Of a stretch of DNA of 64,000 nucleotides, positions 2,938-56,960 are shown piece after piece; the stretch's first letter is position 1; each line of letters starts with the position of its first letter. The notes beneath the pieces were generated by a model. That model saw only the letters and a list, made by a program, of their open reading frames with translations. It searched no databases and was not told where the DNA came from. The DNA comes from a bacterium. Its GTDB lineage: Bacteria > Patescibacteriota > Minisyncoccia > UBA6257 > 02-FULL-45-10c. Made by a program: the position numbers and the translations under genes. The stretch lies in the NCBI GenBank assembly GCA_030700025.1, contig JAUYKI010000010.1, positions 16,648 through 80,647 on the forward strand, in the 5' to 3' direction.

Positions 2938-3061
2938 ATCCCGTTAGAGACAACTTAAATTTTTATAAAAAGGCAAAGTGGAGTTAAAAAATATAAAACA
3001 TAGATTATTAATTAAATCGGTCTTTTACGACCATCTAAAGATGGTCTGCCTCTAACGGGAT
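2938..3061 (-). repeat. family A inverted-repeat (MITE-like) element E1
   Basis: terminal inverted repeats ATCCCGTTAGAG...CCTCTAACGGGAT, internal 7-bp hairpin next to one end, AT-rich interior; homologous to E2/E3/E4. Confidence 0.6.
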
Positions 3062-3233
3062 GGATATATTATACCAAATAATAGAAATTCGCAATAATCT
3101 ATAGTGTTAATAACCTCTTGGGAGACGTTGTGCTTTCCCTGCTTTTAATATTGACAAAAAACTAATTTGAATATAAAATATTTCCGAGCTTGGTTCTCTA
3201 AGAACCTGGCAAAAATAAGGAGGTGCTATAGCC

Positions 3234-3676: not shown

Positions 3677-4423
3677 TTATTCAGGCAATAAAGTTCCGAT
3701 TAACCAAATACTAAAAATACCTAAGATCATAATTAGAATATGCGCGAATTCCCGAACGCCAGTTTTGTGGCGCAACTCCGGAATTAAATCCGAAATAGAA
3801 ATATAAATAAAAGATCCGGCGGTAATGCTAAGCACTATCGGAATATACGGCTCAAGAGCGCTCCGAAAGATATAACCTAATATCGCTCCGGCCGGCGTCA
3901 TTAAGGCCGCCGCCAAATTATATTTCAAGATTTTCCATCGAGGATATCCATTATGAAGCAAGATGCCAAAATCGCTGATTTCTTGCGGAACCTCGTGGAA
4001 AAATACCGCTACCGTAGTCGCAATGCCCGTAGGAATAGAAATTAAAAAACTTAAAGCAATAGCAATGCCATCCAAAAAATTATGCAAAGCATCGCCGATA
4101 ATAACCGTTAAGCTAAAATCATGGATGTCGCATTTTTCCTGATCGTGGCAATGATAAAAATTTAAAAGCTTTTCTAAAATATAAAAAAGTATAATGCCGG
4201 TTACAAAAGCAATAAAAATGGCTGATTCGGAAACATTCCCGGCTAAACTTTCCGGCAAAAGTTCAAAAATCGCCGCGGCCATCAAAGAGCCGGCGGCAAA
4301 ACTCAAAAGATAAATAGAAAGCCTCTTGGCTAATGCCTCATTAATAAGGAGCAGTATCCCGCCCAGCATCGCTACCACGCTTCCCACCAAGCTCGCTATT
4401 AAAATAATCAGAAAAAGCGTCAT
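3677..4423 (-). CDS. zupT: ZIP-family zinc/iron permease (ZupT-like)
   Basis: 248 aa, 8 TM helices; HEVPQEISDFGILL ZIP signature. Confidence 0.8.
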   Translation of the reverse strand: MTLFLIILIASLVGSVVAMLGGILLLINEALAKRLSIYLLSFAAGSLMAAAIFELLPESLAGNVSESAIFIAFVTGIILFYILEKLLNFYHCHDQEKCDIHDFSLTVIIGDALHNFLDGIAIALSFLISIPTGIATTVAVFFHEVPQEISDFGILLHNGYPRWKILKYNLAAALMTPAGAILGYIFRSALEPYIPIVLSITAGSFIYISISDLIPELRHKTGVREFAHILIMILGIFSIWLIGTLLPE

Positions 4424-4466
4424 TAAACCTAATTATAACGGTAAAATTCCGATTAGCAATTTTTAA

Positions 4467-4495
4467 TTGACTTTTTGTCTATTTAGGAGTAATAT
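4467..4495 (+). promoter_or_regulatory. sigma70-like promoter for the acyl-CoA dehydrogenase gene
   Basis: TTGACT - 17 nt - TAATAT; ATTCGTT-GAAAA-CGAATAC hairpin in the leader. Confidence 0.45.
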
Positions 4496-4577
4496 ATAGG
4501 CGAAGTTCCTTGAAAAAGCCGAATCATTCGTTGAAAACGAATACTCGGCCGAACAAACGGATCAGGGGAGGATAGCC

Positions 4578-6488
4578 ATGGGCATGGACGTAGGAAAGCT
4601 CGGCAAAGGACTGGCAATCGCGGAAGAACAGCGGGACAAGCGCCGGCACAACAGTTTCGTCGGCGACTGCTTTCTCGGTATAGCAAATTTTTCGCGGTTC
4701 CTGGAATGCGCGGAAGAAATTCCCGTTGAAGAACAGCGGATCGCGGACGATCTTCTCTATAATTTGAAAGGGTATCTCTGCCGAAATGTGGATCCGGAAA
4801 AAGTGGACGCAACCAATGAATTGCCCGAAGGGGTGATTGAATGGCTTTGCGAAAACGGATATTTCGGACTGAAAATTCCGCGCGAATATGGAGGCATGGG
4901 CTTGCATCAGACTGCTTATTCCCGAGTTTTGGGAGTGGCGGCCAGCTGGTCCGGCGGTTTAGCGGCTCCGCTTTCCGCGGCCAACACTATCGGCCTTAGC
5001 TATCCGATTTTAAATTACGGCGCTGAAGAACAGAAGAAAAAGTGGCTGCCGATTGTTGCCAAAGTCGTAACGGGCTTTGCCTTTACGGAAGACGAAGCTG
5101 GTTCCGATCCGGCAAACATGAAAACTACTGCCACCCGCGTCAAGGGCGGTTATCTCTTAAACGGCACGAAGTGGTGGACCACCAACGGCCCGATGAGCGA
5201 TACCAAATTCTTGTCGCCTCTGTTGTGCGTTATTGCCAAGACCGTTGATTCGCCCGATGAACTGCAGGCCAGAGCCGATGACAAGACTTACAAACCCAGT
5301 TTCAGCGCGCTGATCGTTCCGACTGACGCTCCGGGAATCCGGATTGTCCAGCGGTGCGATTTCGCCGGACTGAAAGGGATTTACAACGGCATTACGGAAT
5401 TCAAGAATGTTTTCGTTCCAGCTGATCAGCTGATCGGCAAGGAAGGACTGGGATTTCGGATCGCCATTGAAGCGCTGAACACCGGCCGGCTTTCAATTGC
5501 CAGCCTGTGCATCGCGGCGGTCAAGCAAGTTTTACTCATCGGAAATTGGTACGGCCGGAAGCGGAAGCAGTGGGCAACCAAGTCCGCTCCTTCCATCGGC
5601 TATCACGAAATGGTCGGCAGCGGATTTCTGGCAAAGGGCGCGGCTAATACTTTAGCGGCGGAAGCGATGGTTTATTTTGCCTCGCTTCGTGTTGACAACG
5701 GATTAGACGCTCGGCTGGAAGCAGCGGTTTGCAAAGTATTCTCTTCCGAACGCGGATGGGAAACCATTGATGACATGATGCAAGTCCGTGGCGGACGCGG
5801 TTATGAAACTGCGGTCTCGCTGGCTAAGCGCGGAGAACCGGCTTTGCCGTTGGAAAGAATTTGGCGCGACTTCCGGATCAACCGGATCTTTGAAGGCGCC
5901 AGTGAAATTCTTATTCTCTGGCTGTTGCGCGAAGGCAGTGATGAGTATAAAAAGCGCGGTGATGTTTTCTTCGGTCCCGGCAATTGGTGGAAAAAGTTCA
6001 CTACTGCCATGGGATTCGCCTGGGATATCCTGAGGCTGCAAAGCCGACAGCAGATTCCCGACGAAGTTTTGGACAGGATTGATCCGCGGCTCCACTCTCA
6101 TCTGTACTTCGTGGAAAAGCACATCCGCAAACTGGCCCTGTCCATGATTTTGATTTCGGCGAAGTATCGCGACAAGCTGATTCATAAACAGCTGATCTTT
6201 AAGAGGCTATTCTGGATCGCCAGCGAACTTTACGCCATGAGCGCGATTTGTTTCTATACTTCCCCGAAACGGCCCGAAGGATATGTCGTTGCCGATGACC
6301 GCAATCTGGATTTGGCCGACCTCTACTGCAAAGAGGCCCGAGCCAGAATTAAGAGCGCTCTTCAGTCGTTGAATCACAATACAGATTCGGAAGCCCGCGC
6401 GGTAGCCAAGCGGCTGCTCGCCGGCGAAGATGACGAATGGCTCAAGAGAGACATTGTCCCGATCGTTGATCATCTTGGATTAAAGTAA
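4578..6488 (+). CDS. acyl-CoA dehydrogenase family protein (long, 636 aa)
   Basis: ACAD core motifs (FAFTEDEAGSDPANMKTTA, GTKWWTTNGPMSD); C-terminal extension; higher GC than neighbours. Confidence 0.8.
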   Translation: MGMDVGKLGKGLAIAEEQRDKRRHNSFVGDCFLGIANFSRFLECAEEIPVEEQRIADDLLYNLKGYLCRNVDPEKVDATNELPEGVIEWLCENGYFGLKIPREYGGMGLHQTAYSRVLGVAASWSGGLAAPLSAANTIGLSYPILNYGAEEQKKKWLPIVAKVVTGFAFTEDEAGSDPANMKTTATRVKGGYLLNGTKWWTTNGPMSDTKFLSPLLCVIAKTVDSPDELQARADDKTYKPSFSALIVPTDAPGIRIVQRCDFAGLKGIYNGITEFKNVFVPADQLIGKEGLGFRIAIEALNTGRLSIASLCIAAVKQVLLIGNWYGRKRKQWATKSAPSIGYHEMVGSGFLAKGAANTLAAEAMVYFASLRVDNGLDARLEAAVCKVFSSERGWETIDDMMQVRGGRGYETAVSLAKRGEPALPLERIWRDFRINRIFEGASEILILWLLREGSDEYKKRGDVFFGPGNWWKKFTTAMGFAWDILRLQSRQQIPDEVLDRIDPRLHSHLYFVEKHIRKLALSMILISAKYRDKLIHKQLIFKRLFWIASELYAMSAICFYTSPKRPEGYVVADDRNLDLADLYCKEARARIKSALQSLNHNTDSEARAVAKRLLAGEDDEWLKRDIVPIVDHLGLK

Positions 6489-6492
6489 AAAA

Positions 6493-6516
6493 ATACCCCG
6501 CTAGCGGGGTTTTTAA
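6493..6516. terminator. bidirectional terminator between the ACAD gene and aceA
   Basis: ACCCCG-CTAG-CGGGGT hairpin with A/T runs on both sides. Confidence 0.6.
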
Positions 6517-7779
6517 TTATTTAAATTGATCTTTTTCAGTTGAGCCGTCCATTGCGGAAGTGGAGGTCTCACCGCCAGAGGCCGTCTGCGCTACTTCATC
6601 AAAGTAACCGGTACCGACCAATTCCTGGTGCTTCACTCCGGGATAGCCGTCTTTCTCTTTGGCGAATTCTTCCGTCTGAAGGTCCACGTACGCCGGCATT
6701 CCGCGTTTCGCGAAATCCTGCGCCAGCTTAAAAGTCGCCAGCATCAGCGCGTGGACTCCCGCCAATGTTACAAACTGGAACTTATAGCCCAGCTTGCCCA
6801 GTTCATCCTGGAAATTCGCCACTGCTTCTTGAGGCAGTTTCGTCCAGTTAAACGACGGAGACAGGTTATAGGCCAAAAGTTTTCCAGGAAATTCCTTGTG
6901 AATCGCTTCTGCAAATTGCCTCGCTTCCGCCAAATCCGGATTAGAGGTTTCATACCAAAGCAAATCCGCGTAAGGCGCGTAAGCCAAAGAGCGCGCAATC
7001 GCGCAATCCATGCCGCCGCGCATCCGGTAAAAACCTTCGGGCGTTCTTTCGCCGGTCAAAAACGGCTTATCGCGGTCATCAATATCGTTGTTCACCAGAT
7101 AAGCGCCGTGCGCGTCAGTCCTGGCAATGATAACCGTGGGAACTCCCAGAACATCCGCCGCCTCCCGCGCCGAACTCAAGGTCCAGATAAACTGGCTAGT
7201 GGAAACTAGAACTTTTCCGCCCAAATGGCCGCACTTTTTTTCCGAACCCAGCTGGTCTTCAAAATGCACTGCCGACGCGCCGGCTCTAATCATCTTCTTC
7301 ATCAATTCAAAAGTATGATCTTTACCCCCGCCAGATTCACCATCAGCCACAATCGGCGCAAACCAATCCCGCTGTTCCCGATTCTTCAAACGCTGTTTCT
7401 CATCTTCCCGCTTAAAAGCGTTGTTAATCCGCTGAACAACATCCGGAACGCTGCGCACCGAATACAAACTCATATCCGGGTAAGTTTCCAAATCGCTGTT
7501 AGCATCAGCCGCGACTTGCCAACCGCTCATGTAAATCGCTTTTTGGCCGGCCGCCACCATGGCCACTGCCATTAATCCGGTATAAGCGCCCAGCGCCTTG
7601 ATGTAAGGTTCGGTATTCAGCATGTGCCAGAATTTTTCCGCGCCTAATCGCGCCAGAGTATGTTCCACCAAAACCGTTCCGCGCAAACGCAAAACCTGTT
7701 CCGGCGCATAATTCCTCTGAACGCCGTTCCATCTCCCGCCGAAAGCCCATTCGTCCCGCAAACGCCCCGCTTCGTTCAT
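6517..7779 (-). CDS. aceA: isocitrate lyase
   Basis: 420 aa; KKCGHLGGKVLV active-site signature; full-length colinearity with AceA. Confidence 0.9.
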   Translation of the reverse strand: MNEAGRLRDEWAFGGRWNGVQRNYAPEQVLRLRGTVLVEHTLARLGAEKFWHMLNTEPYIKALGAYTGLMAVAMVAAGQKAIYMSGWQVAADANSDLETYPDMSLYSVRSVPDVVQRINNAFKREDEKQRLKNREQRDWFAPIVADGESGGGKDHTFELMKKMIRAGASAVHFEDQLGSEKKCGHLGGKVLVSTSQFIWTLSSAREAADVLGVPTVIIARTDAHGAYLVNNDIDDRDKPFLTGERTPEGFYRMRGGMDCAIARSLAYAPYADLLWYETSNPDLAEARQFAEAIHKEFPGKLLAYNLSPSFNWTKLPQEAVANFQDELGKLGYKFQFVTLAGVHALMLATFKLAQDFAKRGMPAYVDLQTEEFAKEKDGYPGVKHQELVGTGYFDEVAQTASGGETSTSAMDGSTEKDQFK

Positions 7780-7896
7780 GTCTGTCCTCCTGCCTAGAGT
7801 TTCGAAGTGCTGGGGAGAATTATAACAATAAAAATTATTCTCGTCAATAGCTTTTAAAAAATAAAAATCCCCCGACCAAAGTCAGGGGTATTTTTT

Positions 7897-9516
7897 TTAA
7901 TTATGCTTCAAATGCTCGTAAGCGGGAAGAGTCAAAAATTCAGTGAAATCTTTGCTGAAAATAATGCGCGCGAACAATTCAGTCGCTAAATCCAGCTTGC
8001 TGGCGGCGTATTTTTCCGCGCCCATTTCTTCCTGAATCTTATCAAATTCTCCACGAATCATCATAGCAACAAATTCTCCGGTAACTGTCTGGCCGTCAGC
8101 CAAAACCGCTTTATGATTCAACCACTGCCAAACTTGCGACCGGGAAATTTCTGCCGTAGCGGCATCTTCCATCAAATTGTAAAGCGGAACACAGCCAATG
8201 CCTCGCAACCAAGCCTCCAAATACTGGATGCCAACGCTGATGTTGGTGCGCAAGCCCGCTTCGGTAATTTCGCCTGAATGCGGCCTCAATAAATCAAATT
8301 CCGTAACCACTACATCTTCCCGCATAACTTCCAGCTGGTTCGGCTTATCGCCTAGAACCTCGTCAAAGGGCTGGCGCGCAATCGCGACCGTGCCCGGATG
8401 AGGAACCCAAGTGCCGTCATGGCCCGCTTCCACTTCTCTCCGCTTATCCGCCAAGATTTTTTCCGTAACCTTTTTATTGGCTTCTGGATCCTTCAAGGGA
8501 ATCTGAGCCGCCATTCCGCCCATGGCATGAGCGCCGCGCTTGTGGCAAACCTGAATCAATTTAACGCAATACGCTTTCAGGAAATCTCTGTCCATCGTCA
8601 CTTGCGCCCGGTCCGGAAGAATAAACCCCGGATGTTTCCGGAATTTCTTGATGTAGCTGAAAATATAATCCCAACGCCCGCAATTCAAACCCGCGGAATG
8701 ATTCTTCAAAGCGTAAAGAATTTCTTCCATTTCAAACGCCGCTAAAATCGTTTCAATCAAAACCGTTGCCCGGATTGTTCCCTGCGGAACACCCAATCTT
8801 CTCTGGGCAAAAACAAAGACATCATTCCAAAGCCTGGCTTCTTCGTAATTTTCCAGCTTCGGCAAATAGAAATAGGGTCCGCTTCCGCGCTCCATTAATT
8901 CTTTGGCGTTATGGAAAAAATATATTCCAAAATCAAACAGCGATGCGGACATCGGCCGGCCGTTTACCAAAATATTTTTTTCCAATAAATGCCAACCCCG
9001 AGGCCGGAACATCAGCGTGGCGATTTTGTCATTCAACTTATATTCCTTGCCAGTTTTCTCGTCCTTGAAATCAATTTGCCGGCGGACTAAGTCGTACATA
9101 TTCAATTGCCCCTGCAAAACATTGGACAAGGTCGGGCAATCGGAATCTTCCGCGTCCGCCATATAGCAATCGGCGCCGCTATTTTCCGCGTTAACCACCA
9201 TGCTCCGTTTGCTAGCCGGACCGGTAATTTCCACTTTCCGGCAGACTAAATCAGCGGGAATAGGCGCTACCCGCCAGAACTCGTCATATCGAATACTCAC
9301 GGTATCTTCACGAAAATGAGGCATTTTGCCAGCGTCAAAGCGTACTTGCTTATGCGTCCGTTCCGTTAAAAATTGTTCGCGATACATACCAAAGATACCT
9401 TGCAACTCCGCCACGAAAGCCAACGCCTCCGGACTTAAAATATGTTCAAATCTTTTCGGTTTTCCGTTGACCACTTCCCAGGTTATCATTGATTCTCTTC
9501 TCCCTTGCCCGTCCAT
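7897..9516 (-). CDS. aceB: malate synthase A
   Basis: 539 aa; LIETILAAFEMEEILYAL...HSAGLNCGRWDYIFS region typical of malate synthase A; directly upstream of aceA. Confidence 0.85.
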   Translation of the reverse strand: MDGQGRRESMITWEVVNGKPKRFEHILSPEALAFVAELQGIFGMYREQFLTERTHKQVRFDAGKMPHFREDTVSIRYDEFWRVAPIPADLVCRKVEITGPASKRSMVVNAENSGADCYMADAEDSDCPTLSNVLQGQLNMYDLVRRQIDFKDEKTGKEYKLNDKIATLMFRPRGWHLLEKNILVNGRPMSASLFDFGIYFFHNAKELMERGSGPYFYLPKLENYEEARLWNDVFVFAQRRLGVPQGTIRATVLIETILAAFEMEEILYALKNHSAGLNCGRWDYIFSYIKKFRKHPGFILPDRAQVTMDRDFLKAYCVKLIQVCHKRGAHAMGGMAAQIPLKDPEANKKVTEKILADKRREVEAGHDGTWVPHPGTVAIARQPFDEVLGDKPNQLEVMREDVVVTEFDLLRPHSGEITEAGLRTNISVGIQYLEAWLRGIGCVPLYNLMEDAATAEISRSQVWQWLNHKAVLADGQTVTGEFVAMMIRGEFDKIQEEMGAEKYAASKLDLATELFARIIFSKDFTEFLTLPAYEHLKHN

Positions 9517-10504: not shown

Positions 10505-11008
10505 TTAAGCTAAGAAAACTATTTTTTTGATTTGTTCAATTACGTCTTGATCGCCGGCGTCCGAAAAACTAATAGTCTGATGCGCGTAGGTTTGGTAAAG
10601 GTAATGCCTTTCCGTAAATAATCCTTCTAATCCCCAGCGCGCTAAACCGATAATCCCCCGCTCCAAAGGCTTGGGTCCCAAACGCTTTTTAACTTCTTCC
10701 AGCGGCAAATCCAAATAAAAAATTTGAGTTTCGGATTTTAATTTATTCATTGCCCGCGTGGAATAAATAATACTGCCGCCCGGAGCAAAAACCGTTTCCG
10801 CCAAATTCAAATCCAAAGACAATTCTTCTTCCAGTTCTAAAAATGCGGTGTCGCCGTTTTTGCCGATAAATTCCGCCGGCGCCAGGCCGGTTTTTTCTTG
10901 GATTAAAATATCCAGGTCCAGAAACTTCCAGCCCAAGCTATCGGCTAATTTTTTGCCGATAGTAGATTTTCCGGCGCCGGGCATGCCGATTAGGGTTATT
11001 CCCTTCAT
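10505..11008 (-). CDS. aroK: shikimate kinase
   Basis: 167 aa; GMPGAGKSTIGKKLA P-loop; start codon preceded by the TAGTATATTAGCATTTC motif. Confidence 0.8.
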   Translation of the reverse strand: MKGITLIGMPGAGKSTIGKKLADSLGWKFLDLDILIQEKTGLAPAEFIGKNGDTAFLELEEELSLDLNLAETVFAPGGSIIYSTRAMNKLKSETQIFYLDLPLEEVKKRLGPKPLERGIIGLARWGLEGLFTERHYLYQTYAHQTISFSDAGDQDVIEQIKKIVFLA

Positions 11009-11116
11009 GAAATGCTAATATACTAATTCATACTAATTATACTAATATTCGTATGTGCCTATTCGTTAAGGCATTCGCATACTATTATTCGCATGTATTA
11101 GTATATTGGTATCGCA
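11009..11116. repeat. PR-family intergenic repeat R1
   Basis: tandem TACTAAT units plus 36-bp core ATTCGTATGTGCCTATTCGTTAAGGCATTCGCATAC, near-identical to 36504-36610. Confidence 0.7.
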
Positions 11117-12256
11117 TTACTTTAACTTCAAAAATCTCTTTTTACCAACTTGCAACAACGTTTCTTTTTCTATTTTTATATTTTTATTCAAATCCGATTG
11201 CGTTTCGCCGTTGATTTTAACTCCTCCCTGCTCAATTAACCGCCGCGCTTCGCTTTTACTTGATGCCAGTCCGACTTTCACAATTAAGTCTACTAGATTC
11301 CAGATTCTACTTTCTAGTTTCTTGACCGGTATATCCGTTGGCGCTTCGTGTTTGGAAAACACCCTGATAAATTCTTCCTTGGCTTCTTCCGCGGCTTTGG
11401 CGCTATGATACATGCCAACAATAATTTTTCCCAATTCTAATTTCGCTTCCCGCGGATCACCGATGGTTCTTTTTCCATCCGTGCAAAGTTCATAATATTG
11501 GCCGATCAGTTCATCGGGGACCGACATAATTTTACCGAACATCGCATTTGGCGCTTCGGTAATGCCGATATAATTTCCCAAAGACTTGGACATTTTTTTC
11601 ACGCCATCCAAGCCTACTAAAAGCGGGAGCATAACTACGTCTTGTTCGGCTTGATCGTATTTTCTTTGTAAACGCCGTCCCATCAAAAGATTAAATTTCT
11701 GATCCACGCCGCCAACTTCTATGTCGGCCTTAACCGCCACCGAATCATATCCCTGCAAAATCGGATAAAGCGCTTCAATCATGGTCACCTCCTGGCCGGC
11801 CTTAATTCTTTTTTGGAAGTCCTCCCGCTCCATAACTCTTTCCATAGATACATTTCCCATCAGCTCTAAAAGCAACTTCCATTTGCCTTCAAACCACTCG
11901 CTGTTATAGCGGATTTCTGTTTTTTTAATATCCAATACTTTTTTCGCCTGGTCTAAATAGGTTTTTAAATTTTGCTTAATTTCTTTATCAGAAAGCTGGG
12001 GGCGGGTTTTATCGCGGCCCGAAGGATCTCCGATTTTTGCGGTAAAATCGCCGATGATTAAAACGGCCTTGTGTCCGGCGTCCTGAAACTGGCGCAGTTT
12101 CCTTAACGGAACCGTATGGCCCAAATGCAAATCCGGCGCCGTTGGATCCACGCCCAATTTCACCCGCAGTTTCTTTCCGGACTTTAGCGCCTTTTCCAAA
12201 TGCTCCTTTTCTATGGCTTCTTCTACCCCTCGTTCCAAAAGATTCTTAATATCCAT
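11117..12256 (-). CDS. tyrS: tyrosyl-tRNA synthetase
   Basis: HLGH and KMSKS class I motifs; C-terminal S4 domain (SEARRLIEQGGVKING). Confidence 0.8.
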   Translation of the reverse strand: MDIKNLLERGVEEAIEKEHLEKALKSGKKLRVKLGVDPTAPDLHLGHTVPLRKLRQFQDAGHKAVLIIGDFTAKIGDPSGRDKTRPQLSDKEIKQNLKTYLDQAKKVLDIKKTEIRYNSEWFEGKWKLLLELMGNVSMERVMEREDFQKRIKAGQEVTMIEALYPILQGYDSVAVKADIEVGGVDQKFNLLMGRRLQRKYDQAEQDVVMLPLLVGLDGVKKMSKSLGNYIGITEAPNAMFGKIMSVPDELIGQYYELCTDGKRTIGDPREAKLELGKIIVGMYHSAKAAEEAKEEFIRVFSKHEAPTDIPVKKLESRIWNLVDLIVKVGLASSKSEARRLIEQGGVKINGETQSDLNKNIKIEKETLLQVGKKRFLKLK

Positions 12257-12342: not shown

Positions 12343-12939
12343 TTATTTCTTCCCCGTCTTGATAATCTCGTCCACTACTCCATAATCTTTAGCTTCCGCG
12401 GCGGTTAAATGAAAATCTCGGTCGGTATCTCGTTCTATTTTAGCCAGCGGCTGACCGGTATGCTTAGCCAAAATTTGGCTTAACCGCTCCTTAATCCGCA
12501 AGATATGCTTGGCGGCAATTTCAATTTCCACCGCCTGGCCTTCCGCCCCGCCCATTACCTGGTGAAGCAAAATTTCCGCGTTCGGCAAAGCCACCCGCTT
12601 TCCTTTTTTTCCGGACGCCAAAAGCACCGCGCCCATAGAAGCCGCCATGCCCACGCAAATCGTGGAAACGTCCGGCTTGATATATTGCATAGTATCGTAA
12701 ATCGCCATGCCAGCGGTTACCGAACCGCCCGGAGAATTAATATAAAGCTTGATATCCCTTTTCGGATCTTCGTGTTCCAAAAATAAAAGCTGGGCAATTA
12801 CCGTATTGGCAACGCCATCGCTAATCGGGCCCGACAAAAAAACAATCCGTTCTTTTAAAAGACGCGAATAAATATCATAAGCCCGCTCGCCATTTTGGGT
12901 TTTTTCTATAACCGTAGGGATAAGGTATTCGTTTTCCAT
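12343..12939 (-). CDS. clpP: ATP-dependent Clp protease proteolytic subunit (copy 2)
   Basis: 198 aa; [14 protein letters not shown]; its ATG lies inside the inverted repeat of element E2. Confidence 0.9.
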
Positions 12940-13049
12940 CCCGTTAGAGGCAGGTTGCCAAAGGCAACCGTAACTTGGCCGTTTTAATTACAATCGACAT
13001 ATTTATATTTTGAATTTTGATTATCATAATTTATTTTGTTTAGTTGCCT
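12938..13049 (+). repeat. family A inverted-repeat (MITE-like) element E2
   Basis: CCATCCCGTTAGAGGCAGG...TTGCCTCTAACGGGAT; internal GGTTGCC-AAA-GGCAACC hairpin; interior homologous to E4. Confidence 0.65.
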
Positions 13050-13276
13050 CTAACGGGATTCCATTCCTTTACTTTTTGTGCTGTCTTTTGGCAAATTCCT
13101 CTAATTCTTCCTCGGTTACCGGCGCGTCCGCTTCCCGGAATTTTTCAACTTTTTCCGGAGTCATTGCCGGATCAATAGTCGGCTTAACTTCTTTTGGTGA
13201 AAATTTTTCTGGCATAGTTTTATTTTAATTAATTTTTATAATTTCGTAGATTCGTACTCTTTCGTATTTAGTAGCT

Positions 13277-16810: not shown

Positions 16811-18055
16811 TCATTCTTCGGATTTTTCTTTATCTTCCGAAGCTTCTTTGGCTTCCTTTTCTATTGCTGCCGCGACTCCGCCTTCCTGAACTTCTTCCGG
16901 ACGAGCCTGCGAACGGACATCAATTTTCCAACCGGTTAATTTAGCGGCTAAACGGACATTCTGCCCGCCCCGGCCGATTGCCAAACTCAATTGGTCTTCC
17001 GGAATAAAAACTTTAGCGTCCCGGCGCGGAGAAATTTCCACGGATTTTACTTTTGCCGGAGATAAAGAATTGGAAATAAATTTTTCCGCATCGTCCGACC
17101 ATTCAATAATATCAATTTTTTCCTGTCCCAGCTCATTACTGACGGACATTACCCGCGTGCCTCTTTGGCCGACGCAAGATCCAACCGGATCCACTCCGTC
17201 CGCGGTAGAAGCTACCGCGATTTTTGTCCGGCTTCCCGGCTCTCTGGCAATACCTTTAATTTCTACGATTCCTTCGGCAATTTCCGGAACTTCCAATTCA
17301 AAAAGCTTGCTGACGAATTTCGGATGCGACCGGGAAAGAATAATGCCCGGCACTTTGCTGTCTTCCTGAACCGCCACGATATAAAACCGCATCCGGTCTC
17401 CGGATTTATAATGTTCGCCGGGGATGGATTCGTTATAAAACATAACGCCGGTGGCTCTTCCTAAGTCAACAAAAACATTTCCGCGGTCAAACCGCTGGAT
17501 TACGCCGCTGATAATTTCTCCTTCCTTGCTTTGAAATTCATGGATTACCGAAATCCGTTCCGCTTCCCGCAATTTCTGTAAAACTACCTGTTTGGCAGTT
17601 TGCGCGGCAATCCGGCCGAAGTCATCGTGAGTTTCCAAAGGAAATTCCAATTCTTCTTCTAAAGCAACGCCTTTCTTAATTTTCTTAGCTTCTTCCAGAA
17701 AAAGATGGCGATCCGGATTATAACGGGGCAATTTGCCTTCTTCGTCTTCAAAAGATTCCGGCGCTTCCCGTTCTACACGCTTGGAAACTGCTCCAACTTC
17801 TTCCACCGGCACTTCTTCCGTCTCTTCTACTATTCTTACTGTAGATTCATCCACCACGGTCTTTACCTGCCAAAACTTAAGGCTGCCGGTTTTTAAATCA
17901 AACTTGCATTTAATAATTTCTCCTTTTTTGCCGTATTCCTTTTTATAAGCAGCGGCAATAGACGATTCAATCGCCTCTAAAATCTGATTGGGCTCAATGC
18001 CTTTTTCTTCGGCAATCTGCTCAATCGCTTTTTTTAATGTTTTTAAATCAAACAT
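16811..18055 (-). CDS. nusA: transcription termination/antitermination factor NusA
   Basis: 414 aa; N-terminal domain, S1 domain and two KH domains in NusA order. Confidence 0.9.
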   Translation of the reverse strand: MFDLKTLKKAIEQIAEEKGIEPNQILEAIESSIAAAYKKEYGKKGEIIKCKFDLKTGSLKFWQVKTVVDESTVRIVEETEEVPVEEVGAVSKRVEREAPESFEDEEGKLPRYNPDRHLFLEEAKKIKKGVALEEELEFPLETHDDFGRIAAQTAKQVVLQKLREAERISVIHEFQSKEGEIISGVIQRFDRGNVFVDLGRATGVMFYNESIPGEHYKSGDRMRFYIVAVQEDSKVPGIILSRSHPKFVSKLFELEVPEIAEGIVEIKGIAREPGSRTKIAVASTADGVDPVGSCVGQRGTRVMSVSNELGQEKIDIIEWSDDAEKFISNSLSPAKVKSVEISPRRDAKVFIPEDQLSLAIGRGGQNVRLAAKLTGWKIDVRSQARPEEVQEGGVAAAIEKEAKEASEDKEKSEE

Positions 18056-18107
18056 ACGCTATAAATTAATAAAATGTCCGCTCGACAGCGGACTTCAATC
18101 TGTTTCC

Positions 18108-18135
18108 AGTATATAGGATAAGTAAGGGCTTGTCA
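18108..18135 (-). promoter_or_regulatory. sigma70-like promoter of nusA directly abutting element A
   Basis: minus strand TTGACA - 16 nt - TATACT; element A ends 1 nt before the -35 box. Confidence 0.45.
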
Positions 18136-18136
18136 A

Positions 18137-18415
18137 TGGTCTCGGTTATATCTCTTTACGGAAACAGAATAACTGCTTCGCCGAATCTCTTTCCTCAACC
18201 TCTCATTCGGAAAACCTTATTCTCCCGCTACCGTTCGTCCTCCCAGCGTGAGGACTCACTGGCTCGTCGGCCTCGCTCTGTCCCGCTTCGCGGGACAACC
18301 ATGCCCGCTCGGCCTCCGGCCGCGCTACGGAGAATAAGGATTTCCTCATTTTTATTATTTTATTAACCGAGCTAATCGGTTCGCTTGGGTTTCGGTAAAG
18401 AGATATCGGCCTTCG
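18137..18415 (-). repeat. mosaic GC-rich structured element A (candidate ncRNA)
   Basis: 19-bp long-range helix joins the ends (18140-18165 with 18392-18415); internal CCTTATTCTCC/GGAGAATAAGG helix; UUCG-capped hairpin GTCCCGC-TTCG-GCGGGAC; related to 25398-25592 and 40655-40800. Confidence 0.5.
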
Positions 18416-18542
18416 CTTTAAAATAGTTTGTATATAATTGCGGGATGTTCCCTTAAAGGGGTATAACCTCGACTTTGGATTTTAAAACGTGGGGCTAATC
18501 CCCATAAAAAAATTCCCCTCGATTTTCATCGAGGGGGGTAGT

Positions 18543-18680
18543 TCACCCACAGGAACGGGGGCCGGTCATGGTCAGGACAAAGGGCAGGGCAATGAGCAGA
18601 AGGATCATCGCGCCCATCACGCCCACCATCACCCAGGCGACTTTCTGGCTCACCTTCTTCTTGTTCAGATACCTCAGCAT
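18543..18680 (-). CDS. small hydrophobic protein (45 aa, 1 TM)
   Basis: ATG preceded by AAGGAGG on the minus strand; immediately downstream of the 69-aa membrane ORF. Confidence 0.35.
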   Translation of the reverse strand: MLRYLNKKKVSQKVAWVMVGVMGAMILLLIALPFVLTMTGPRSCG

Positions 18681-18699
18681 GTGCAGCCTCCTTGTTAGC

Positions 18700-18909
18700 T
18701 TACTTTGGGCCCGAGACTGATGAGCTCGGACATTTCTTGAGGTCGTGTGACACAAGACCGACCAAAAGACCGATCAGATATCCGAGGAAAGAACAGATGC
18801 CCATTGCCGCAAACGATTCATTAGGAGTTATCGGAAATCTGAACACGTAGGGCAAAAACATGGCAACTATCAATCCGATACCGTACTTAAGCATGGTAAT
18901 CCTCCTCAC
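18700..18909 (-). CDS. small membrane protein (69 aa, 2 TM)
   Basis: GAGGAGG RBS upstream; two hydrophobic helices. Confidence 0.4.
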   Translation of the reverse strand: MRRITMLKYGIGLIVAMFLPYVFRFPITPNESFAAMGICSFLGYLIGLLVGLVSHDLKKCPSSSVSGPK

Positions 18910-19020
18910 ACTTTTAAGTTACTATATCTAGTATAGCATACTATATCAGTCTTGTCAATAGCACCTTAGGCCCGCCCCCTAAAACCCATCCCTTCTCCCC
19001 ACAAAATATAAAACCCCCGT

Positions 19021-19463: not shown

Positions 19464-19844
19464 CTAAAGATTTTCAAAATACTTAATTAACGGCTCTTTG
19501 CCGTTAATTAAAGTAATAGCGATTAAATCTATGCGCCATCCCCTTTCGTCGTTTACGAGATTGGGATTCTGGTTAGCATACAAAATGGCGGTTCTTTGTA
19601 ATTTTTGTAATTTGGCGGCAGTAAGATTGTCTTCCGGATTTAATTCGGCAATTGCCGGATTGCCGGATTCTTTCATGGTTTTTACTTCAACAATGACTAA
19701 TGTCTTGTCTGGCGCCATAGCAATGACGTCCAACTCGCCCCATGGCTTTCTAAAATTCCGTTCAATAACCGTGAAACAATGTTTCACAAGGTATTCACAA
19801 GCAAGATCTTCTCCAAATTTTCCAACTTCGGATTTATGCGTCAT
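19464..19844 (-). CDS. yraN: YraN-family (UPF0102) endonuclease
   Basis: GEDLACEYL...GELDVIAM..VIVEVKT motifs typical of YraN. Confidence 0.75.
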   Translation of the reverse strand: MTHKSEVGKFGEDLACEYLVKHCFTVIERNFRKPWGELDVIAMAPDKTLVIVEVKTMKESGNPAIAELNPEDNLTAAKLQKLQRTAILYANQNPNLVNDERGWRIDLIAITLINGKEPLIKYFENL

Positions 19845-19868
19845 TGACCAAATGTTAAACAAAAACAC

Positions 19869-20509
19869 AGTGTTTTACAAATAAAATTGTTTCACGTGTT
19901 ACAAAATTATCTAAATAGGCTCAAATCTTTACAGATGTTTCACATTTAGTGTGAAACATTGGTAATGAAATAAGCCTAAAGTATCAAAATTGTTTCGCGT
20001 GAAACTTTTTCACTCAGCCGAACCACCTCTCCTCAACCCGCTTCGCTCGTCCAGCGACTCGCTCGCTTGTACTCGCCGCCTTGCCGTTCAAGGAGTTTAC
20101 GCCCCATAACGAACGGACCCTGCCAAGGCGGCTGCGTGGGTATCGGATAAGTGGTGTCGGCATCGCCCTGTGATTAAAAATTAGGATCGCTTATCAAATC
20201 AAAAGTTTCACGTATTACAAAATTACCCAAATAGGCTCAAGTCTAGCACCAATGTTTCACGCTTTTAGTGTGAAACATTATTTTAGTACCCAAAATAAGG
20301 CAATTTGGCCTAATCCGGCAAGACGAATGTTTCACAAAAGTGTTTCACGCCGACACACCTCCTTCTATCTATATCAACCGATAACACCCTTTCCAACGAA
20401 GAAGAGAGGGTTTTTCTATATTGACATTTAATCCTAAATATGATATCATCATATTTAGTTCAGATTTAGTTCAGACTTGATAGTTAAATAACTGCTAGGA
20501 GGAACTGCA
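19869..20509. promoter_or_regulatory. dense regulatory intergenic region with TGTTTCAC palindromes
   Basis: about 12 TGTTTCAC/GTGAAACA sites; two ~110-bp direct repeats (19889-19960, 20205-20281) flank a GC-rich hairpin-rich core (20030-20170); promoter TTGACA-17-TATCAT overlapped by an 11-bp perfect palindrome (20434-20458); tandem ATTTAGTTCAG x2. Confidence 0.55.
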
Positions 20510-24539: not shown

Positions 24540-24647
24540 TCCCTCACCCTTTGTTATAACGGAGTGTCGTATAGTGGTAGTATACACGCTTCGGGTGTGT
24601 GTGGTCTGGGTTCGATTCCCAGCACTCCGACAAGAAAGGGTGAGGGA
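24540..24647 (+). repeat. family B paired inverted repeat F1 enclosing the inner tRNA
   Basis: TCCCTCACCCTTT (24540-24552) perfectly complementary to AAAGGGTGAGGGA (24635-24647). Confidence 0.65.
24560..24630 (+). tRNA. tRNA-Pro(CGG)-like (inner copy), no encoded CCA
   Basis: acceptor cggagtg/cactccg; anticodon arm cacgc-ttCGGgt-gtgtg; T arm ctggg-ttcgatt-cccag; D arm non-canonical (uaua/uaua), needs tRNAscan-SE. Confidence 0.55.
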
Positions 24648-24710
24648 CGCTTCGGGTGCGTGAGTACTGGGTTCGATTCCCAGCAGCCCGACCAAATTAA
24701 AATTAAATAT

Positions 24711-25397: not shown

Positions 25398-25592
25398 ACT
25401 TTAGCATATAAAGCCGAGGTTATTTCTCTTGAAGGAACATCCCGCCACGCCCCGCCAAAGGCGAGGCTCCGCTTACAGCGGGGCCGGGGGCAGGCGTATT
25501 TTGCTTGGACCACAAAATACGCCGAGGGCGAAGAAAGTTTTATCGCTGGAATAAAACTATTCTGTTTCCGCAAAGAGATATAGCCGAGACCC
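25398..25592 (+). repeat. mosaic GC-rich structured element B
   Basis: 3' end TATTCTGTTTCCGCAAAGAGATATAGCCGAGACC is near-identical (2 mismatches) to the reverse complement of 18137-18170; the ends pair; abuts the rpsA promoter. Confidence 0.5.
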
Positions 25593-25621
25593 TTGACCCC
25601 TCTTTTTTTATTATCTATACT
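25593..25621 (+). promoter_or_regulatory. sigma70-like promoter of the S1 gene
   Basis: TTGACC - 17 nt - TATACT; ATG at 25629 only 8 nt after the -10 box, so the transcript is leaderless or nearly so. Confidence 0.45.
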
Positions 25622-34274: not shown

Positions 34275-34404
34275 CCCTCACCCTTGAAGGGCCTAACGCG
34301 TTTCCGCGTTTTTGTTTCAAGATTAATTTAAGATTAAGCTCAATCGACATTTTAAATAATAAACTAATTATGGGCAATCTCACAGCCCTTCCAAGGTGAG
34401 GGAT
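34273..34404. repeat. family B paired inverted repeat F2
   Basis: ATCCCTCACCCTTG...CAAGGTGAGGGAT flank 105 bp of AT-rich sequence; abuts the xerC stop. Confidence 0.6.
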
Positions 34405-35300
34405 TAATTTCGTCTACGGCCGTGAAATGCCCTATGGACTTCCCGCAATTCTTTATTAGTTAAATGAGTGTAAACCTGGGTGGTGGCAATATTGCTGTGG
34501 CCAAGCATTTCCTGCACCGCCCGCAAATCCGCGCCGTTTACCAGCAAATCCGTGGCAAACTGGTGGCGGAGCTGATGCGGAGTAATTTTTTTGGTAATGC
34601 CCGCTTTCCGCCGGTAAAACTCCACCAGGCGCTGAACCGAGCGCGGAGTAATTTTTCCGATAATTTTCGGATTTGGCCCCTTTGATAAACTAACGAACAT
34701 GACTCCTTCGGCATCACCGCGTTTCGCCAGATAATTTTTCAAAGCGGTTCGGGCGCGATCCGAAATAAACACTATCCGCAATTTTTCGCCCTTGCCCCGG
34801 ACCGTAATTTCTCCGCGGTCCAAATTAAGATAACGGTCTAATTTGCAAAGCTCCGAAAGCCGGAGTCCGGTAGAAAATAAAGTTTCTAAAATCGCTTTGT
34901 CCCGCAAGCCCCGCAAATTATCTGTTTTGGGAGAATTTAAAAATCTTTCCAAATCCGCGTATTCCACAATTTCAATCTGCCGGCGGGGAATTTTCGGAAG
35001 TTCAATTTTATCCGGCGACAAAACTTCGTAATCTTTTTTAATCAGATATTTTAAAAAGTTCCGGATAGCAATTACGTAAAAAGACTGGGTAATTCTTTTT
35101 AACGGCTTGCCGCGCGCCAACTGAAGGCGGAATTGAATGACTTTTTCCGCGGTAATTTCTTCCGGCTTTTTAACTTTTGCGAAAGCTAAAAACGCCTTTA
35201 AATAACGCTCATAATTTTCCCGGGTTTTAATAGAGCGGTTTTTTTCCACTTCTAAATAATCCAGATAGTTTTGCAAAGCATCTTGAACGCTAGCCATGCC
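34404..35300 (-). CDS. xerC: tyrosine recombinase XerC/XerD family
   Basis: C-terminal R..HxxR..Y catalytic region (RHQFATDLL...LGHSNIATTQVYTHL); ORF extends to 35393 but MASVQD is the likely start. Confidence 0.85.
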   Translation of the reverse strand, partial: GMASVQDALQNYLDYLEVEKNRSIKTRENYERYLKAFLAFAKVKKPEEITAEKVIQFRLQLARGKPLKRITQSFYVIAIRNFLKYLIKKDYEVLSPDKIELPKIPRRQIEIVEYADLERFLNSPKTDNLRGLRDKAILETLFSTGLRLSELCKLDRYLNLDRGEITVRGKGEKLRIVFISDRARTALKNYLAKRGDAEGVMFVSLSKGPNPKIIGKITPRSVQRLVEFYRRKAGITKKITPHQLRHQFATDLLVNGADLRAVQEMLGHSNIATTQVYTHLTNKELREVHRAFHGRRRN

Positions 35301-35341
35301 TTTATTATAACCTGTCGCACAATATTTTTTAACCACGCAAA

Positions 35342-35478
35342 ATCCCTCACTTTTGAAGCACCGAAACGTCCAGGCGATTTCCTTAGAGGACACTAATCAT
35401 TTACAAGTAGGGTCTGGAGTTAGAAAACAACGTAGTAAGACAAACGCTTAAAAATCGCAGCGCTTCAAGAGTGAGGGA
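35342..35478. repeat. family B paired inverted repeat F3
   Basis: ATCCCTCACTTTTGAAGC...GCTTCAAGAGTGAGGGA, 17-bp arms. Confidence 0.6.
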
Positions 35479-36227: not shown

Positions 36228-36494
36228 ATGTTAACTAAAAGGCAAAAACTCAATATCGTAAAAGAACACGGCCGGCACGAAACCGATACCGGCTCAACCG
36301 AATCCCAAGTCGGACTTTTGACCAAGCGAATTGAGGAATTAACTGCTCACCTGAAAAAACACCGCAAGGATAATCTGTCCCGGCGCGGGCTTTTACAAAT
36401 GGTCGGAAAAAGAAAAAAATTATTGGACTACCTTTCTAAAAAACAGCCGAAGGCTTACAGCGCGGTTATTAAAAAGTTAGGATTAAAAAAATAA
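36228..36494 (+). CDS. rpsO: 30S ribosomal protein S15
   Basis: 88 aa; HRKDNLSRRGLLQMVGKRKKLLDYL conserved S15 region. Confidence 0.9.
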   Translation: MLTKRQKLNIVKEHGRHETDTGSTESQVGLLTKRIEELTAHLKKHRKDNLSRRGLLQMVGKRKKLLDYLSKKQPKAYSAVIKKLGLKK

Positions 36495-36503
36495 CAAAGC
36501 TGA

Positions 36504-36610
36504 AATACTAATATACTAATTCATACTAATATTCGTATGTGCCTATTCGTTAAGGCATTCGCATACTATTATTCGCATGCATTCGTATATTGGCATTACA
36601 GAATAGCTAA
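36504..36610. repeat. PR-family intergenic repeat R2
   Basis: near-identical to 11009-11116 over about 100 bp, including the 36-bp core and TCGTATATTGGCATTAC. Confidence 0.7.
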
Positions 36611-39234: not shown

Positions 39235-39367
39235 TCCCTCACCCTTGCGAAAGCTAACCCCGCCTTAAGGCGGGGTTTTTGCTTCAACAAAAAATAATTG
39301 CGCTAAAAATTACGATTTCTAATTAAATTATGGATTATATAATAATACTTTCGCAAAGGTGAGGGAT
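39234..39367. repeat. family B paired inverted repeat F4 (contains the pnp terminator)
   Basis: ATCCCTCACCCTTGCGAAAG...CTTTCGCAAAGGTGAGGGAT; interior holds AACCCCGCC-TTAA-GGCGGGGTTTTT. Confidence 0.6.
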
Positions 39368-39412
39368 TTTGTTTTCCACCATTCCGTTGTTCCCATATGA
39401 TATACTAAAAAT

Positions 39413-40654: not shown

Positions 40655-40800
40655 CTCAGCCGTACCACATCTCCTCTACCGCTCAAACTCCCGGCGAGAA
40701 TTTTCACTGGGTCTCGGGCTTCGCTCTTTCTACCTATTGGCGGAAAGCCCTGCCCGCTCAGCCTTCAGCCCGTGCTACGGAGAATAAGGCTTTCTCGCTT
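40655..40800 (-). repeat. mosaic GC-rich element C (partial homolog of element A interior)
   Basis: TGCCCGCTCAGCCTTCAGCCCGTGCTACGGAGAATAAGGCTTTC parallels 18296-18345; lacks the terminal helix and promoter. Confidence 0.45.
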
Positions 40801-40984
40801 AAATATTACGCGGGTATCGGAAGCAAGAATATTTTGCCTCTAAAAAATAAAGGTCTATCTTTTTCGGCCTTGATTAGACGGATTTAATAGCCTAGTCTAA
40901 GCAGTTGGAAAAAATCATTAACGCTTCCATTTGTATTATTTTTTTCTTGCATATGCTATAATAGTTATATAAATCAGTATTTTA

Positions 40985-41146
40985 AAAAATAGAGGATTGG
41001 AAACCCTCTTATAAGTACCTCTGGCAGTAAACCTGCCCTTACTTCAGCGTAGGGATTCCCTAAAAAGTTTCCATACGCCAAAAGCGTATTCCCGTAAAAA
41101 GGAGGTACGCCCTACGTTGAAGCAAGTGCAGGTTTTTTGTTTGAAA
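40985..41146 (+). ncRNA. candidate structured small RNA with intrinsic terminator
   Basis: 24-bp interrupted closing helix (41031-41054 with 41110-41133) followed by TTTTTT; internal ATACGC-CAAAA-GCGTAT hairpin; exposed AAGGAGG; no adjacent ORF. Confidence 0.35.
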
Positions 41147-41660
41147 TAAAAAAACACCCCTTTTCAGGGGCGGTAGTAGGAAGATAGTGGAGCGGTTAAC
41201 TCTGGGGATTTATATAGTCCCCCAAAGGATTTTAGCTAAATCCTTAGACGTATTACGTAATACGCATTTATCTATCAATCTATTAGTGCTTCTGGGAAAG
41301 GGTGTTTTTTGATTAACTTATATTCTATTCTAAAAGAATTTTCAAGTCAATACCAACCGCTTGATATACTACTTTTATAGTATCACAATCCTTAACGGCA
41401 CTGTTAATAAGTTGTTAATACTTATTTAGTGTATTTTCCTAAATCTTTTTGAATTTTTTTCTCTTGAGCTTCTATTTCAAATTGAATTTCTTCTCCATTA
41501 ACTCATAATTCCCATAAACTCCAGTTCCCAACGGACCATCTCTTGAGATAACGTCTATAAACATTTCCGTCATCGCAAACCACATATTCAAAATCGCCAT
41601 TTTTACTTCTAAAGAAATTTATTATTTTCATAATTTTATTATGACAAATTATTCTTTTAA

Positions 41661-45962: not shown

Positions 45963-45998
45963 GTATGCGAATGCCTTAACGAATAGGCACATACGAAT
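45963..45998 (-). repeat. PR-family core copy R3 (reverse orientation)
   Basis: exact reverse complement of the 36-bp core ATTCGTATGTGCCTATTCGTTAAGGCATTCGCATAC. Confidence 0.65.
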
Positions 45999-46200
45999 TT
46001 TTATAGAATTTATTTTTCACTCTTAGAATCTCTTTTTAATAATTGGATTCAGCCTCAAACTAAGAGTGAAAAATAAGTTCTTTAAGAAAAGCAATATCTG
46101 TACCAATATTTTTTACTAAAAATTATTTTGGGGAAATATTGGTGCAGAGATTGCACAAACTTGTGTCCGCAAGGCCACAAAATACAGGAAGGAGATACAG

Positions 46201-55875: not shown

Positions 55876-56002
55876 AATAATAATGAGATACTAATATACC
55901 AATGCATGCGAATAATACTAATAAAATACGAATATGTAAAAATTAGTATATTATTCGTATAATTAGTACCATTCGTATATTGGCATCATTTAGTGTAAAC
56001 AT
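55876..56002. repeat. PR-family repeat R5 (rearranged, inverted-arm duplication)
   Basis: contains CCAATGCATGCGAATAATA (reverse complement of the R2 arm) and ATTCGTATATTGGCAT ending 8 nt... before the 56003 ATG (24 nt from TATATT). Confidence 0.6.
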
Positions 56003-56491
56003 ATGCAATTTCAAGTTCCACAATTTATAGAAACCGAGGATAAAATTATTGGTCCGCTGACTCTGAAGCAGTTTTTATATTTTGTAGCGGTGGGCGGAAT
56101 CAGTTTTATTTTATTTTTCTTTTTAAAAACCGTTATTTGGCTGATCCTTACTATTTTCATGGCAGTGTTCGCGGCCGCTTTGGCGTTTATAAAAATCAAC
56201 GGCCGGCCGCTTCCGAAAGTATTAATAGCGGCGTTATTTTTCTACATGAAACCGCGGTTATTCTTATGGCAAAGAGAAACTAAGCCGGCCGCGGAGGCCC
56301 CGGCAGAAGAAGGAACGGCCTTGGGGAATCTTTGGCAAAAACTGAATACCAGCACCGCGCCGATTTCCAAAAGAGAAAAAACTTTGTCTAGGCCGTCTAT
56401 GGTAACGCGCGCCAAAGGCAAGGAGGGATTTGAAACTCTGCGAAAGATTACCGGCGAAAAAGAAGAGGCCAAACGAGTAGATTTTAGATAG
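56003..56491 (+). CDS. two-TM small protein, VirB3/PrgI-like candidate
   Basis: two adjacent TM helices at the N-terminus then a charged tail; lies upstream of the VirB4-like gene. Confidence 0.35.
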   Translation: MQFQVPQFIETEDKIIGPLTLKQFLYFVAVGGISFILFFFLKTVIWLILTIFMAVFAAALAFIKINGRPLPKVLIAALFFYMKPRLFLWQRETKPAAEAPAEEGTALGNLWQKLNTSTAPISKREKTLSRPSMVTRAKGKEGFETLRKITGEKEEAKRVDFR

Positions 56492-56509
56492 CGTAATACC
56501 AATATACAA

Positions 56510-56920
56510 ATGCGTGCGAATAATACAAATACTAAATTAATTTATCCCGAGCTTTCTTATACAATCACTGGCATTTGCTTTGATACTCACAATACTATTG
56601 GCAGATATGGTCGGGAAAAACAATATTCGGATGAAATCGAAAAACGGCTTAAAGGAATAGCAATGCCTTATAAGAGAGAGTTTCCGATTGCTAATACCGG
56701 CAATATACTGGATTTTTTAATAGATAATAAAATTATTTTAGAATTGAAAACCAAAATAACCGTTGATCGCCAAGACTATTACCAAGTACAAAGGTACTTG
56801 CAAGCTTCAAATATAAAATTGGGTTTGTTGATAAATTTTCAAGCTAAATATCTTAAGCCATTAAGGATTGTCAGAATTGATACGGCGGCCAGAAGCAATT
56901 TTAATGATTTATTAGTATAA
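56510..56920 (+). CDS. AT-rich PD-(D/E)xK-like nuclease-fold protein (136 aa)
   Basis: [17 protein letters not shown] fits D...ExK; flanked by PR-family repeats R6 and R7; its ATG lies inside R6. Confidence 0.35.
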
Positions 56921-56960
56921 TTAGTATTATTAGTATGAATTAGTATATTAGCATTACATT

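Follow-up and report, generated by a model that had tools for sequence, protein, structure and literature searches.

Probable lineage-specific mosaic palindromic repeats next to apparently pre-existing promoters in a Patescibacteria genome

The Correia repeats of Neisseria are bounded by inverted repeats of 20-30 bp, form long hairpins if transcribed, occur as subtypes with different interiors and are often found beside promoters or terminators. MITEs are defined as dispersed, non-coding sequences of 50-800 bp with terminal inverted repeats of at least 10-15 bp, a target-site duplication of 2-10 bp and a related autonomous element (PMC11602168). Putative mobile promoters are sequences of 50-100 nt that share at least 80% identity upstream of non-homologous genes (Matus-Garcia et al. 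2012, PMC3488235). Little has been documented on small interspersed repeats in Patescibacteria, and a search of the literature on MITEs or structured RNAs in this group found nothing specific. In the window, the whole 64-kb stretch of DNA analysed here, we identified five elements; further copies are present in the related loci L121, L125, L126 and L137. The elements are non-coding, about 145-350 bp long and GC-rich in a genome of 45% GC, and all copies are intergenic. They are related to one another, fold back on themselves, are present or absent at orthologous sites and occur in either orientation and at non-orthologous loci. We consider it probable that elements A-D of the window represent a lineage-specific superfamily of MITE/BIME-like mosaic palindromic repeats that lie next to pre-existing promoters.

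The elements, their parts and the neighbouring promoters are located as follows.

18136-18108, minus strand: nusA promoter TTGACA-17-TATACT, 11/12 to consensus, outside the element
18138..18171, minus strand: B-type right arm of the presumed composite A (3' module, 34 nt), 32/34 to B 25559-25592
18172..18415, minus strand: A-inner, assigned to family 1 and apparently enclosed by the B-type arms; a separate terminal helix pairs about 18411-18390 with 18200-18176
18440..18486, minus strand: B-type left arm of the presumed composite A, 79% over 47 nt to B 25400-25445
20013..20172, minus strand: element D, assigned to family 1, inside a cluster of TGTTTCAC boxes
25400..25592, plus strand: element B, assigned to the B-type, with a terminal helix, GC-rich internal hairpins, a hairpin with a CGCUGGA loop and the 34-nt right arm
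25593..25621, plus strand: S1 (rpsA-like) promoter TTGACC-17-TATACT, 10/12 to consensus, outside the element
40655..40872, minus strand: element C, assigned to family 1, arms degenerate, immediately behind the stop codon of a convergent gene of 411 aa

The identities of NusA (16811-18055) and of the S1-domain protein were confirmed by Pfam. The first-pass annotation had described a near-identical 34-nt 3' end shared by A and B and ending 1 nt before a promoter, and both statements hold. The right arm reads TATTCTGTTTCCGTAAAGAGATATAACCGAGACC in A (18171-18138, minus strand) and TATTCTGTTTCCGCAAAGAGATATAGCCGAGACC in B (25559-25592), with 32 identical positions out of 34, and at nusA and S1 alike a single nucleotide separates it from the -35 hexamer of TTGACA-17-TATACT (A) or TTGACC-17-TATACT (B). 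The likeness of the two sites extends over 64 nt at 80% identity across both promoters (18108-18171 versus 25558-25621; E 8e-12). A 24-nt degenerate core of the module has two sites in the window, those of A and B only, compared with 0 in 100 shuffles. L125 and L126 have the module as well.

A second arm at 18440-18486 matches the 5' arm of B (25400-25445); thus A, which had been annotated as ending at 18415, reaches to 18486 and the B-type unit at nusA comprises 18138-18486. Likewise, C extends to about 40872, the elements themselves being real. The left arm 18440-18486 pairs with 18138-18166 in a duplex of 23 pairs (-26.4 kcal/mol), and in the minimum-energy fold of A the 3' module pairs with 18446-18473. 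The 19-bp long-range helix previously assigned to A has its complementarity, but at 17 of 18 positions, and the minimum-energy fold instead pairs that 5' arm with an internal copy at about 18177-18200. Between the B-type arms, A-inner closes with a terminal duplex of 25 pairs (-31 kcal/mol). Its core (18225-18344) is 73% identical over 122 nt to C (40673-40794; E 1.6e-16 in a within-window comparison) and CTACGGAGAATAAGG is exact in both, in agreement with the earlier observation that A shares its interior with C. The right-end region of A-inner is 85% identical to the elements of L121 and L137. Judged by these matches, A appears to be a composite in which a family-1 element is nested inside a B-type element. 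The only open reading frames within A encode 78 and 48 aa, both without a Pfam match.

The GC-rich core at 20030-20170, suspected in the first reading to be a fourth relative, corresponds to D, which is related to the other copies by its ends: 20013-20038 is 88% identical over 26 nt to 40655-40680 of C, and the right end of D is also related. The end motifs CTCAGCCGAAC...CTCAACC and GGGTTTCGG.AAG.GATATCGGC are common to A-inner, C, D and the copies in L121 and L137, while the interiors of these differ. The arms of C are degenerate, with 7 G·U pairs, and its end lies 6 nt from the stop of the convergent gene. By sequence, the copies can be divided into family 1 (A-inner, C, D, L121 and L137) and the B-type (the outer arms of A, B, L125 and L126). 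An alignment of 14 ends revealed that the arms of the two groups are related to each other, with the core motifs GCCGA..ATCTCTTT and AAAGAGAT..TCGGC or CCGAG. Terminal helices were found in all eight copies examined; they are imperfect, with 19-32 pairs and energies of -21 to -44 kcal/mol. All elements fold far more stably than shuffled sequences, with z-scores of -5 to -7.6 for A, B and the L126 copy. With their shared arms, swapped interiors and strong self-complementarity, the elements are non-random, related and mosaic, as had been proposed.

The sample amounts to about nine copies from the window and the fetched relative loci. Searched with an nhmmer profile of the 14 ends, neither the window nor about 100 kb of related loci revealed additional copies, and a metagenome scan yielded one true relative, L126. 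The 18-nt pattern GTTTCSGNAAAGAGATAT gave 119 chance matches across genome contigs, in unrelated phyla and none extending past the pattern. Viral contigs scanned with two patterns gave 0 matches, and blastn found no match to A or B in phage records or to A in plasmid records.

The TGTTTCAC boxes that surround D are strongly clustered: 9 of the 11 copies in the window lie within 19771-20348, with about 1.2 expected for the whole window. Many form inverted pairs ATGTTTCAC-N-GTGAAACAT. D is flanked on either side by a direct repeat of about 110 nt (19885-20002 and 20200-20300), and the boxes lie inside these two repeats. L121 has this box cluster too, upstream of its UPF0102 gene (4370-4830). An oriC-like region and an operator array are both conceivable; genes change orientation near 21.8 kb, but no dnaA is nearby and the GC skew does not turn cleanly.

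Homologues of NusA and S1 place the window within Patescibacteria, its neighbours being named Harrisonbacteria, Pacebacteria or Paceibacterota. We compared the syntenic loci L125 (NusA 95%), L137 (NusA 85%), L121 and L128 of one genome (NusA 84%, S1 78%), L124 and L127 of one contig (NusA 82%, S1 80%), and L126, L132 and L135, which have about 82% nucleotide or 82% S1 identity and of which L126 and L135 come from one JGI metagenome. Empty orthologous sites were found in L121, L124, L128, L127, L132 and L126. B is missing from the orthologous spacers of L128, L132/L135 and L127, and at the site of C the spacer measures 61 nt in L126, which has no C, compared with 1012 nt in the window. Conversely, the spacer that separates pnp from the adjacent gene in L126 contains a complete B-type copy (5577-5732) with no promoter after it, and the orthologous spacer of the window is devoid of one. 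In L137 a family-1 copy lies immediately upstream of the nusA -35 (...GCGGCCTCGCGCGCAG|TTGACA). This copy is 89% identical over 166 nt to that of L121, yet the two occupy different loci, the nusA -35 and the box cluster upstream of the UPF0102 gene. Furthermore, A-inner and the L137 copy have opposite orientations relative to nusA, and D is inverted relative to the L121 copy of the same intergenic region. The gap upstream of nusA was colonised independently by two different elements, in the lineage of the window and L125 and in L137. In addition, the Logan assemblies of the same organism (L001) and of the 95% relative (L125) break inside the element, and these breaks may reflect a repeat.

In L121 and L124, which have no element upstream of nusA, the -35 and -10 hexamers, the leader hairpin and the start codon are all conserved. 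There the terminator of the upstream gene is followed after 6-20 nt by TTGACA or TTGACT-17-TATACT, a terminator-like leader hairpin (GTCCGC...GCGGAC plus a U-run) and the ATG. The nusA promoter is conserved in L137 as well, and L125 has the 34-nt module at nusA in the same position as the window. Upstream of S1, where B is absent, L128 has TTGACG-17-TATACT overlapping the preceding terminator and L127 has TTGACT-17-TATACT, while L132/L135 have a short spacer without B. The occurrence of the same nusA and S1 promoters in element-free relatives suggests that the elements inserted upstream of pre-existing promoters, that is, that both promoters are ancestral and were probably not brought by the elements. 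The promoter-carrying modules of the first-pass annotation are not supported, in view of the nusA promoter in the element-free L121 and L124 and of the S1 promoter in the B-free L128 and L127. The same annotation had taken copies that lack any association with promoters as a sign of inert repeats, and such copies exist: no promoter adjoins C, which lies by the stop of a convergent gene, D and the L121 copy, both in the box cluster, or the L126 copy, whose 3' module is 7 nt from the pnp stop codon. TTGAC as a part of the element or as a duplicated core was ruled out, since no left flank contains it and the hexamer appears to be ancestral.

In the nusA leader of the window (18076-18093, minus strand), GTCCGCTGTCGAGCGGAC forms a hairpin that resembles a terminator and precedes a U-run. 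The hairpin is conserved, by way of compensatory changes, in L121, L124, L125 and L137; as a transcription attenuator it may serve NusA autoregulation. The ATG of S1 (25629) starts 7 nt past the -10 hexamer (25616-25621), and this distance suggests that the S1 mRNA is leaderless. A and B each have the downstream promoter on one side and a terminator on the other, in A the strong one that ends a small two-ORF operon and in B that of the gene before it. The compact two-gene operon (18500-18958, minus strand) is absent from L121 and L124 and has about 55% GC in the 45% GC genome. It has a promoter TTGACA-17-TATACT, a strong terminator (18536-18515) and two ORFs with GGAGG ribosome-binding sites, which encode small hydrophobic proteins of 64 aa (18894-18700) and 45 aa (18680-18543) without a Pfam match.

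The filled site of C was compared with the empty site of L126 (GCTCAG^CTT), which revealed 0-1 bp duplicated. At the remaining copies no consistent flanking direct repeats were found; the repeats AGCGA around the L121 copy and GCGAAG around A-inner may be parts of the elements themselves. Pfam and the gene tables revealed no transposase or autonomous element with matching ends in the window or the fetched loci, and the only recombinase in the window is an Xer-like tyrosine recombinase (34404-35393). The arms co-vary. The L137 and L121 elements, otherwise 89% identical, have CCGCTA/TAGCGG and CCAATA/TATTGG, respectively, and D differs again. The stem under the conserved CGCUGGA loop is fully exchanged between B and L126 by 6 compensatory pairs (10 of 42 pairs overall), and the L125 stem under this loop is that of L126. 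Arm co-variation and stem exchange imply that base-pairing itself is maintained, which is not predicted by a simple transposase-binding inverted repeat.

Such folding could be that of RNA, and the elements had been put forward as structured ncRNA genes. They would then be paralogous genes or cis-acting domains of a new structured RNA class, with the terminal helix and the hairpins as the functional fold, a reading that we consider unlikely. It draws on the z-scores, on the compensatory changes in the terminal arms and in the CGCUGGA-loop hairpin and on the non-complementary CCGAGG of both arms, which generates tandem G·A/A·G mismatches conserved in A, B and L126. However, cmscan of the whole window against Rfam 15 identified only 7 tRNAs at the gathering threshold, and no RNA family matched the elements even at E<=10 except for overlaps far below threshold: short raiA-hairpin, L13 leader and gyrA hits in B (12-16 bits versus gathering thresholds of 38-45) and gltS across the right part of C (19.6 bits versus 47.5, E 7). 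RNase P, 6S, tmRNA, SRP, OLE and HEARO were ruled out in the absence of a credible cmscan match on the elements, and the annotation had rightly refrained from claiming RNase P. Moreover, consensus scans revealed no sigma-70-like promoter upstream and no intrinsic terminator downstream that would belong to the elements, only those of flanking genes, and A and B are located behind strong terminators of preceding genes. The nominal sense strand, which is purine-rich, always folds better by 4-15 kcal/mol, which would favour an RNA, but the difference vanishes once composition is controlled, with similar z-scores on both strands and 34 versus 34 G·U pairs. Neither folding energy nor G·U counts can hence assign a strand, and the sense strand given earlier to the elements is not determinable. 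Orientation relative to neighbours varies (A-inner versus L137; D versus L121), orthologous loci of close relatives lack the elements, and the interiors are swapped and not conserved, all of which argues against an RNA gene.

The 34-nt module could instead be a shared upstream regulatory site for nusA and rpsA (activator or operator, or UP-like), recruited from or spread by the repeat as a mobile promoter. This we regard as quite improbable, although two genes of translation and transcription share 32 of 34 nt in the same orientation, ending 1 nt before the -35, the module has been kept at nusA in L125, the 95% relative, and 64 nt at 80% upstream of non-homologous genes agree with the definition of a mobile promoter (PMC3488235). 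The promoters of L121, L124, L128 and L127 lack the module, in L126 it abuts the pnp stop codon with no promoter after it, and L137 has a different element in the other orientation at the same position; besides, it precedes only 2 of about 55 genes of the window and is GC-rich, unlike UP elements. Elements that are relics or non-autonomous derivatives of a hairpin-moving or site-specifically recombining element (IS200/IS605-like PATEs, IS110-like, integron- or Xer-type sites) seem very unlikely. Movement as a single-strand hairpin or by site-specific recombination would explain why C has no target-site duplication, and it would be consistent with arms in which complementarity and not sequence is maintained, with the right arm of the B-type copies being better conserved than the left one and with the tyrosine recombinase gene of the window. 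The encoded recombinase, however, appears to be an ordinary Xer-type enzyme, 9-16 kb separate its gene from the nearest copies, no TnpA, TnpB, IS110-type or IntI protein was found near any copy, Rfam gave no match to HEARO or another omega-RNA, and true terminal inverted repeats are atypical of IS200/IS605. Further, a structure-dependent mobile element is conceivable but doubtful, in which arm pairing would be copied or selected (e.g. by a fold-back or single-strand hairpin route without target duplication) and which would home to terminator/-35 junctions of strong promoters, its copies perhaps acting as insulators or modulators of essential-gene promoters in the reduced genomes of Patescibacteria.

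According to the interpretation that we favour, mosaic palindromic repeats beside pre-existing promoters, the elements would have spread as selfish DNA. The sole places where copies would persist are the few bases that separate a terminator from the following -35 and the bases immediately behind stop codons, since insertions elsewhere in the compact spacers would not be tolerated; this constraint is proposed as the reason why element ends come to lie against -35 hexamers. If expression of nusA or rpsA were affected at all, the effect would be a secondary one. The two B-type ends 1 nt from a -35 and the repeated colonisation of nusA hint at site preference or selection over tolerance; with about nine copies, site preference and survival in the sole tolerated position are not separable.

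Further repetitive sequences are present in the window. A separate intergenic repeat family consists of TACTAAT-rich tracts beside the hairpin GTATGTGCCTATTCGTTAAGGCATTCGCATAC, in both orientations, at the following sites.

11007-11119, 36491-36603, 45963-46012, 55877-55935, 56485-56543, 56920-56964, 62872-63012: TACTAAT-rich/GTATGTGCCTATTCGTTAAGGCATTCGCATAC repeats

Another family, built around CTGCCTCTAACGGGATGGA and adjacent hairpins, is found at 3046-3064, 12935-13062 and 61245-61366 and includes a 58-nt inverted pair of 88% identity. At 39244-39262 and 39349-39368, where L126 has its B-type element, the pnp terminator lies inside a 19-bp inverted repeat (CCCTCACCCTTGCGAAAG...CTTTCGCAAAGGTGAGGG), which may be another small palindromic element. 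The sequence 40873-41660, part of the 1-kb spacer that measures 61 nt in L126, contains two long hairpins (41029-41135 and 41145-41314) with T-runs behind both, possibly further inserted elements or small RNA genes. Between tRNA-Pro (24586-24631) and tRNA-Val, 24647-24692 is an 87% copy of the 3' half of tRNA-Pro that was not called by ARAGORN or Rfam. Upstream of S1 in L127 (9520-9990), a tRNA gene precedes a unit of about 110 nt that is duplicated and contains the tRNA 3' end once more, resembling an integration scar at a tRNA. Regarding gene content, 4578-9516 encodes acyl-CoA dehydrogenase, isocitrate lyase and malate synthase, to which L121 adds thiolase and 3-hydroxyacyl-CoA dehydrogenase, metabolic content that is unusual for a genome of Patescibacteria.

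On present evidence the elements are neither a new RNA class nor a mobile promoter, and their interest is local, for the genome biology of Patescibacteria. Repeats in the few free bases between terminator and promoter bear on the question of how selfish DNA survives in small, compact genomes. They may also bear on breaks of short-read assemblies at such spots in these organisms. For annotation, GC-rich and well-folding islands should not be named ncRNA genes or mobile promoters from sequence alone.

In comparison with bacterial MITEs (PMC11602168; review PMC3184786), the elements are alike in small size, intergenic position, non-coding nature and presence or absence between related genomes. 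Their length of about 145-350 bp, terminal inverted repeats (19-32 pairs in 8/8 copies), dispersal, insertion polymorphism and non-orthologous copies all agree with the MITE definition (PMC11602168), while a target-site duplication of 2-10 bp is not seen. They resemble Correia elements in their inverted-repeat bounds, long hairpins, varied interiors and adjoining promoters or terminators. Unlike both Correia elements and MITEs, they have no detectable target-site duplication and no cognate transposase in the window or the fetched loci, their arms co-vary and have no one fixed sequence, and they are GC-rich in a 45% GC genome; unlike in Correia elements, the promoters by A and B appear to be ancestral and not created by an element end. 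The definition of putative mobile promoters (PMC3488235) covers the 64 nt at 80%, but the part that moved would be the sequence upstream, the -35/-10 boxes having probably been there before the repeat arrived; the occurrence of the same -35/-10 at the same spacing in repeat-free relatives argues against a mobile promoter. With the BIME/REP sequences of enterobacteria and BOX of Streptococcus pneumoniae (PMC3184786, PMC3049150) the elements share a mosaic of short motifs, an extragenic position near gene ends and a strong potential for structure. They differ from BIME/REP in having no 35-nt REP-type palindromic unit with a GTAG head and no RAYT gene seen: a REP/BIME (REPtron) test for the GT(A/G)G head on the 14 aligned ends revealed arms that are not self-palindromic and no GTAG head, and no Y1 transposase (RAYT) was among the scanned proteins. 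In contrast to boxA-boxB-boxC arrays, the modules are enclosed here by one long terminal helix. Taken by analogy, the Correia, ERIC, BOX and BIME repeats appear to be the closest documented analogues (PMC3184786, PMC3049150, PMC11602168).
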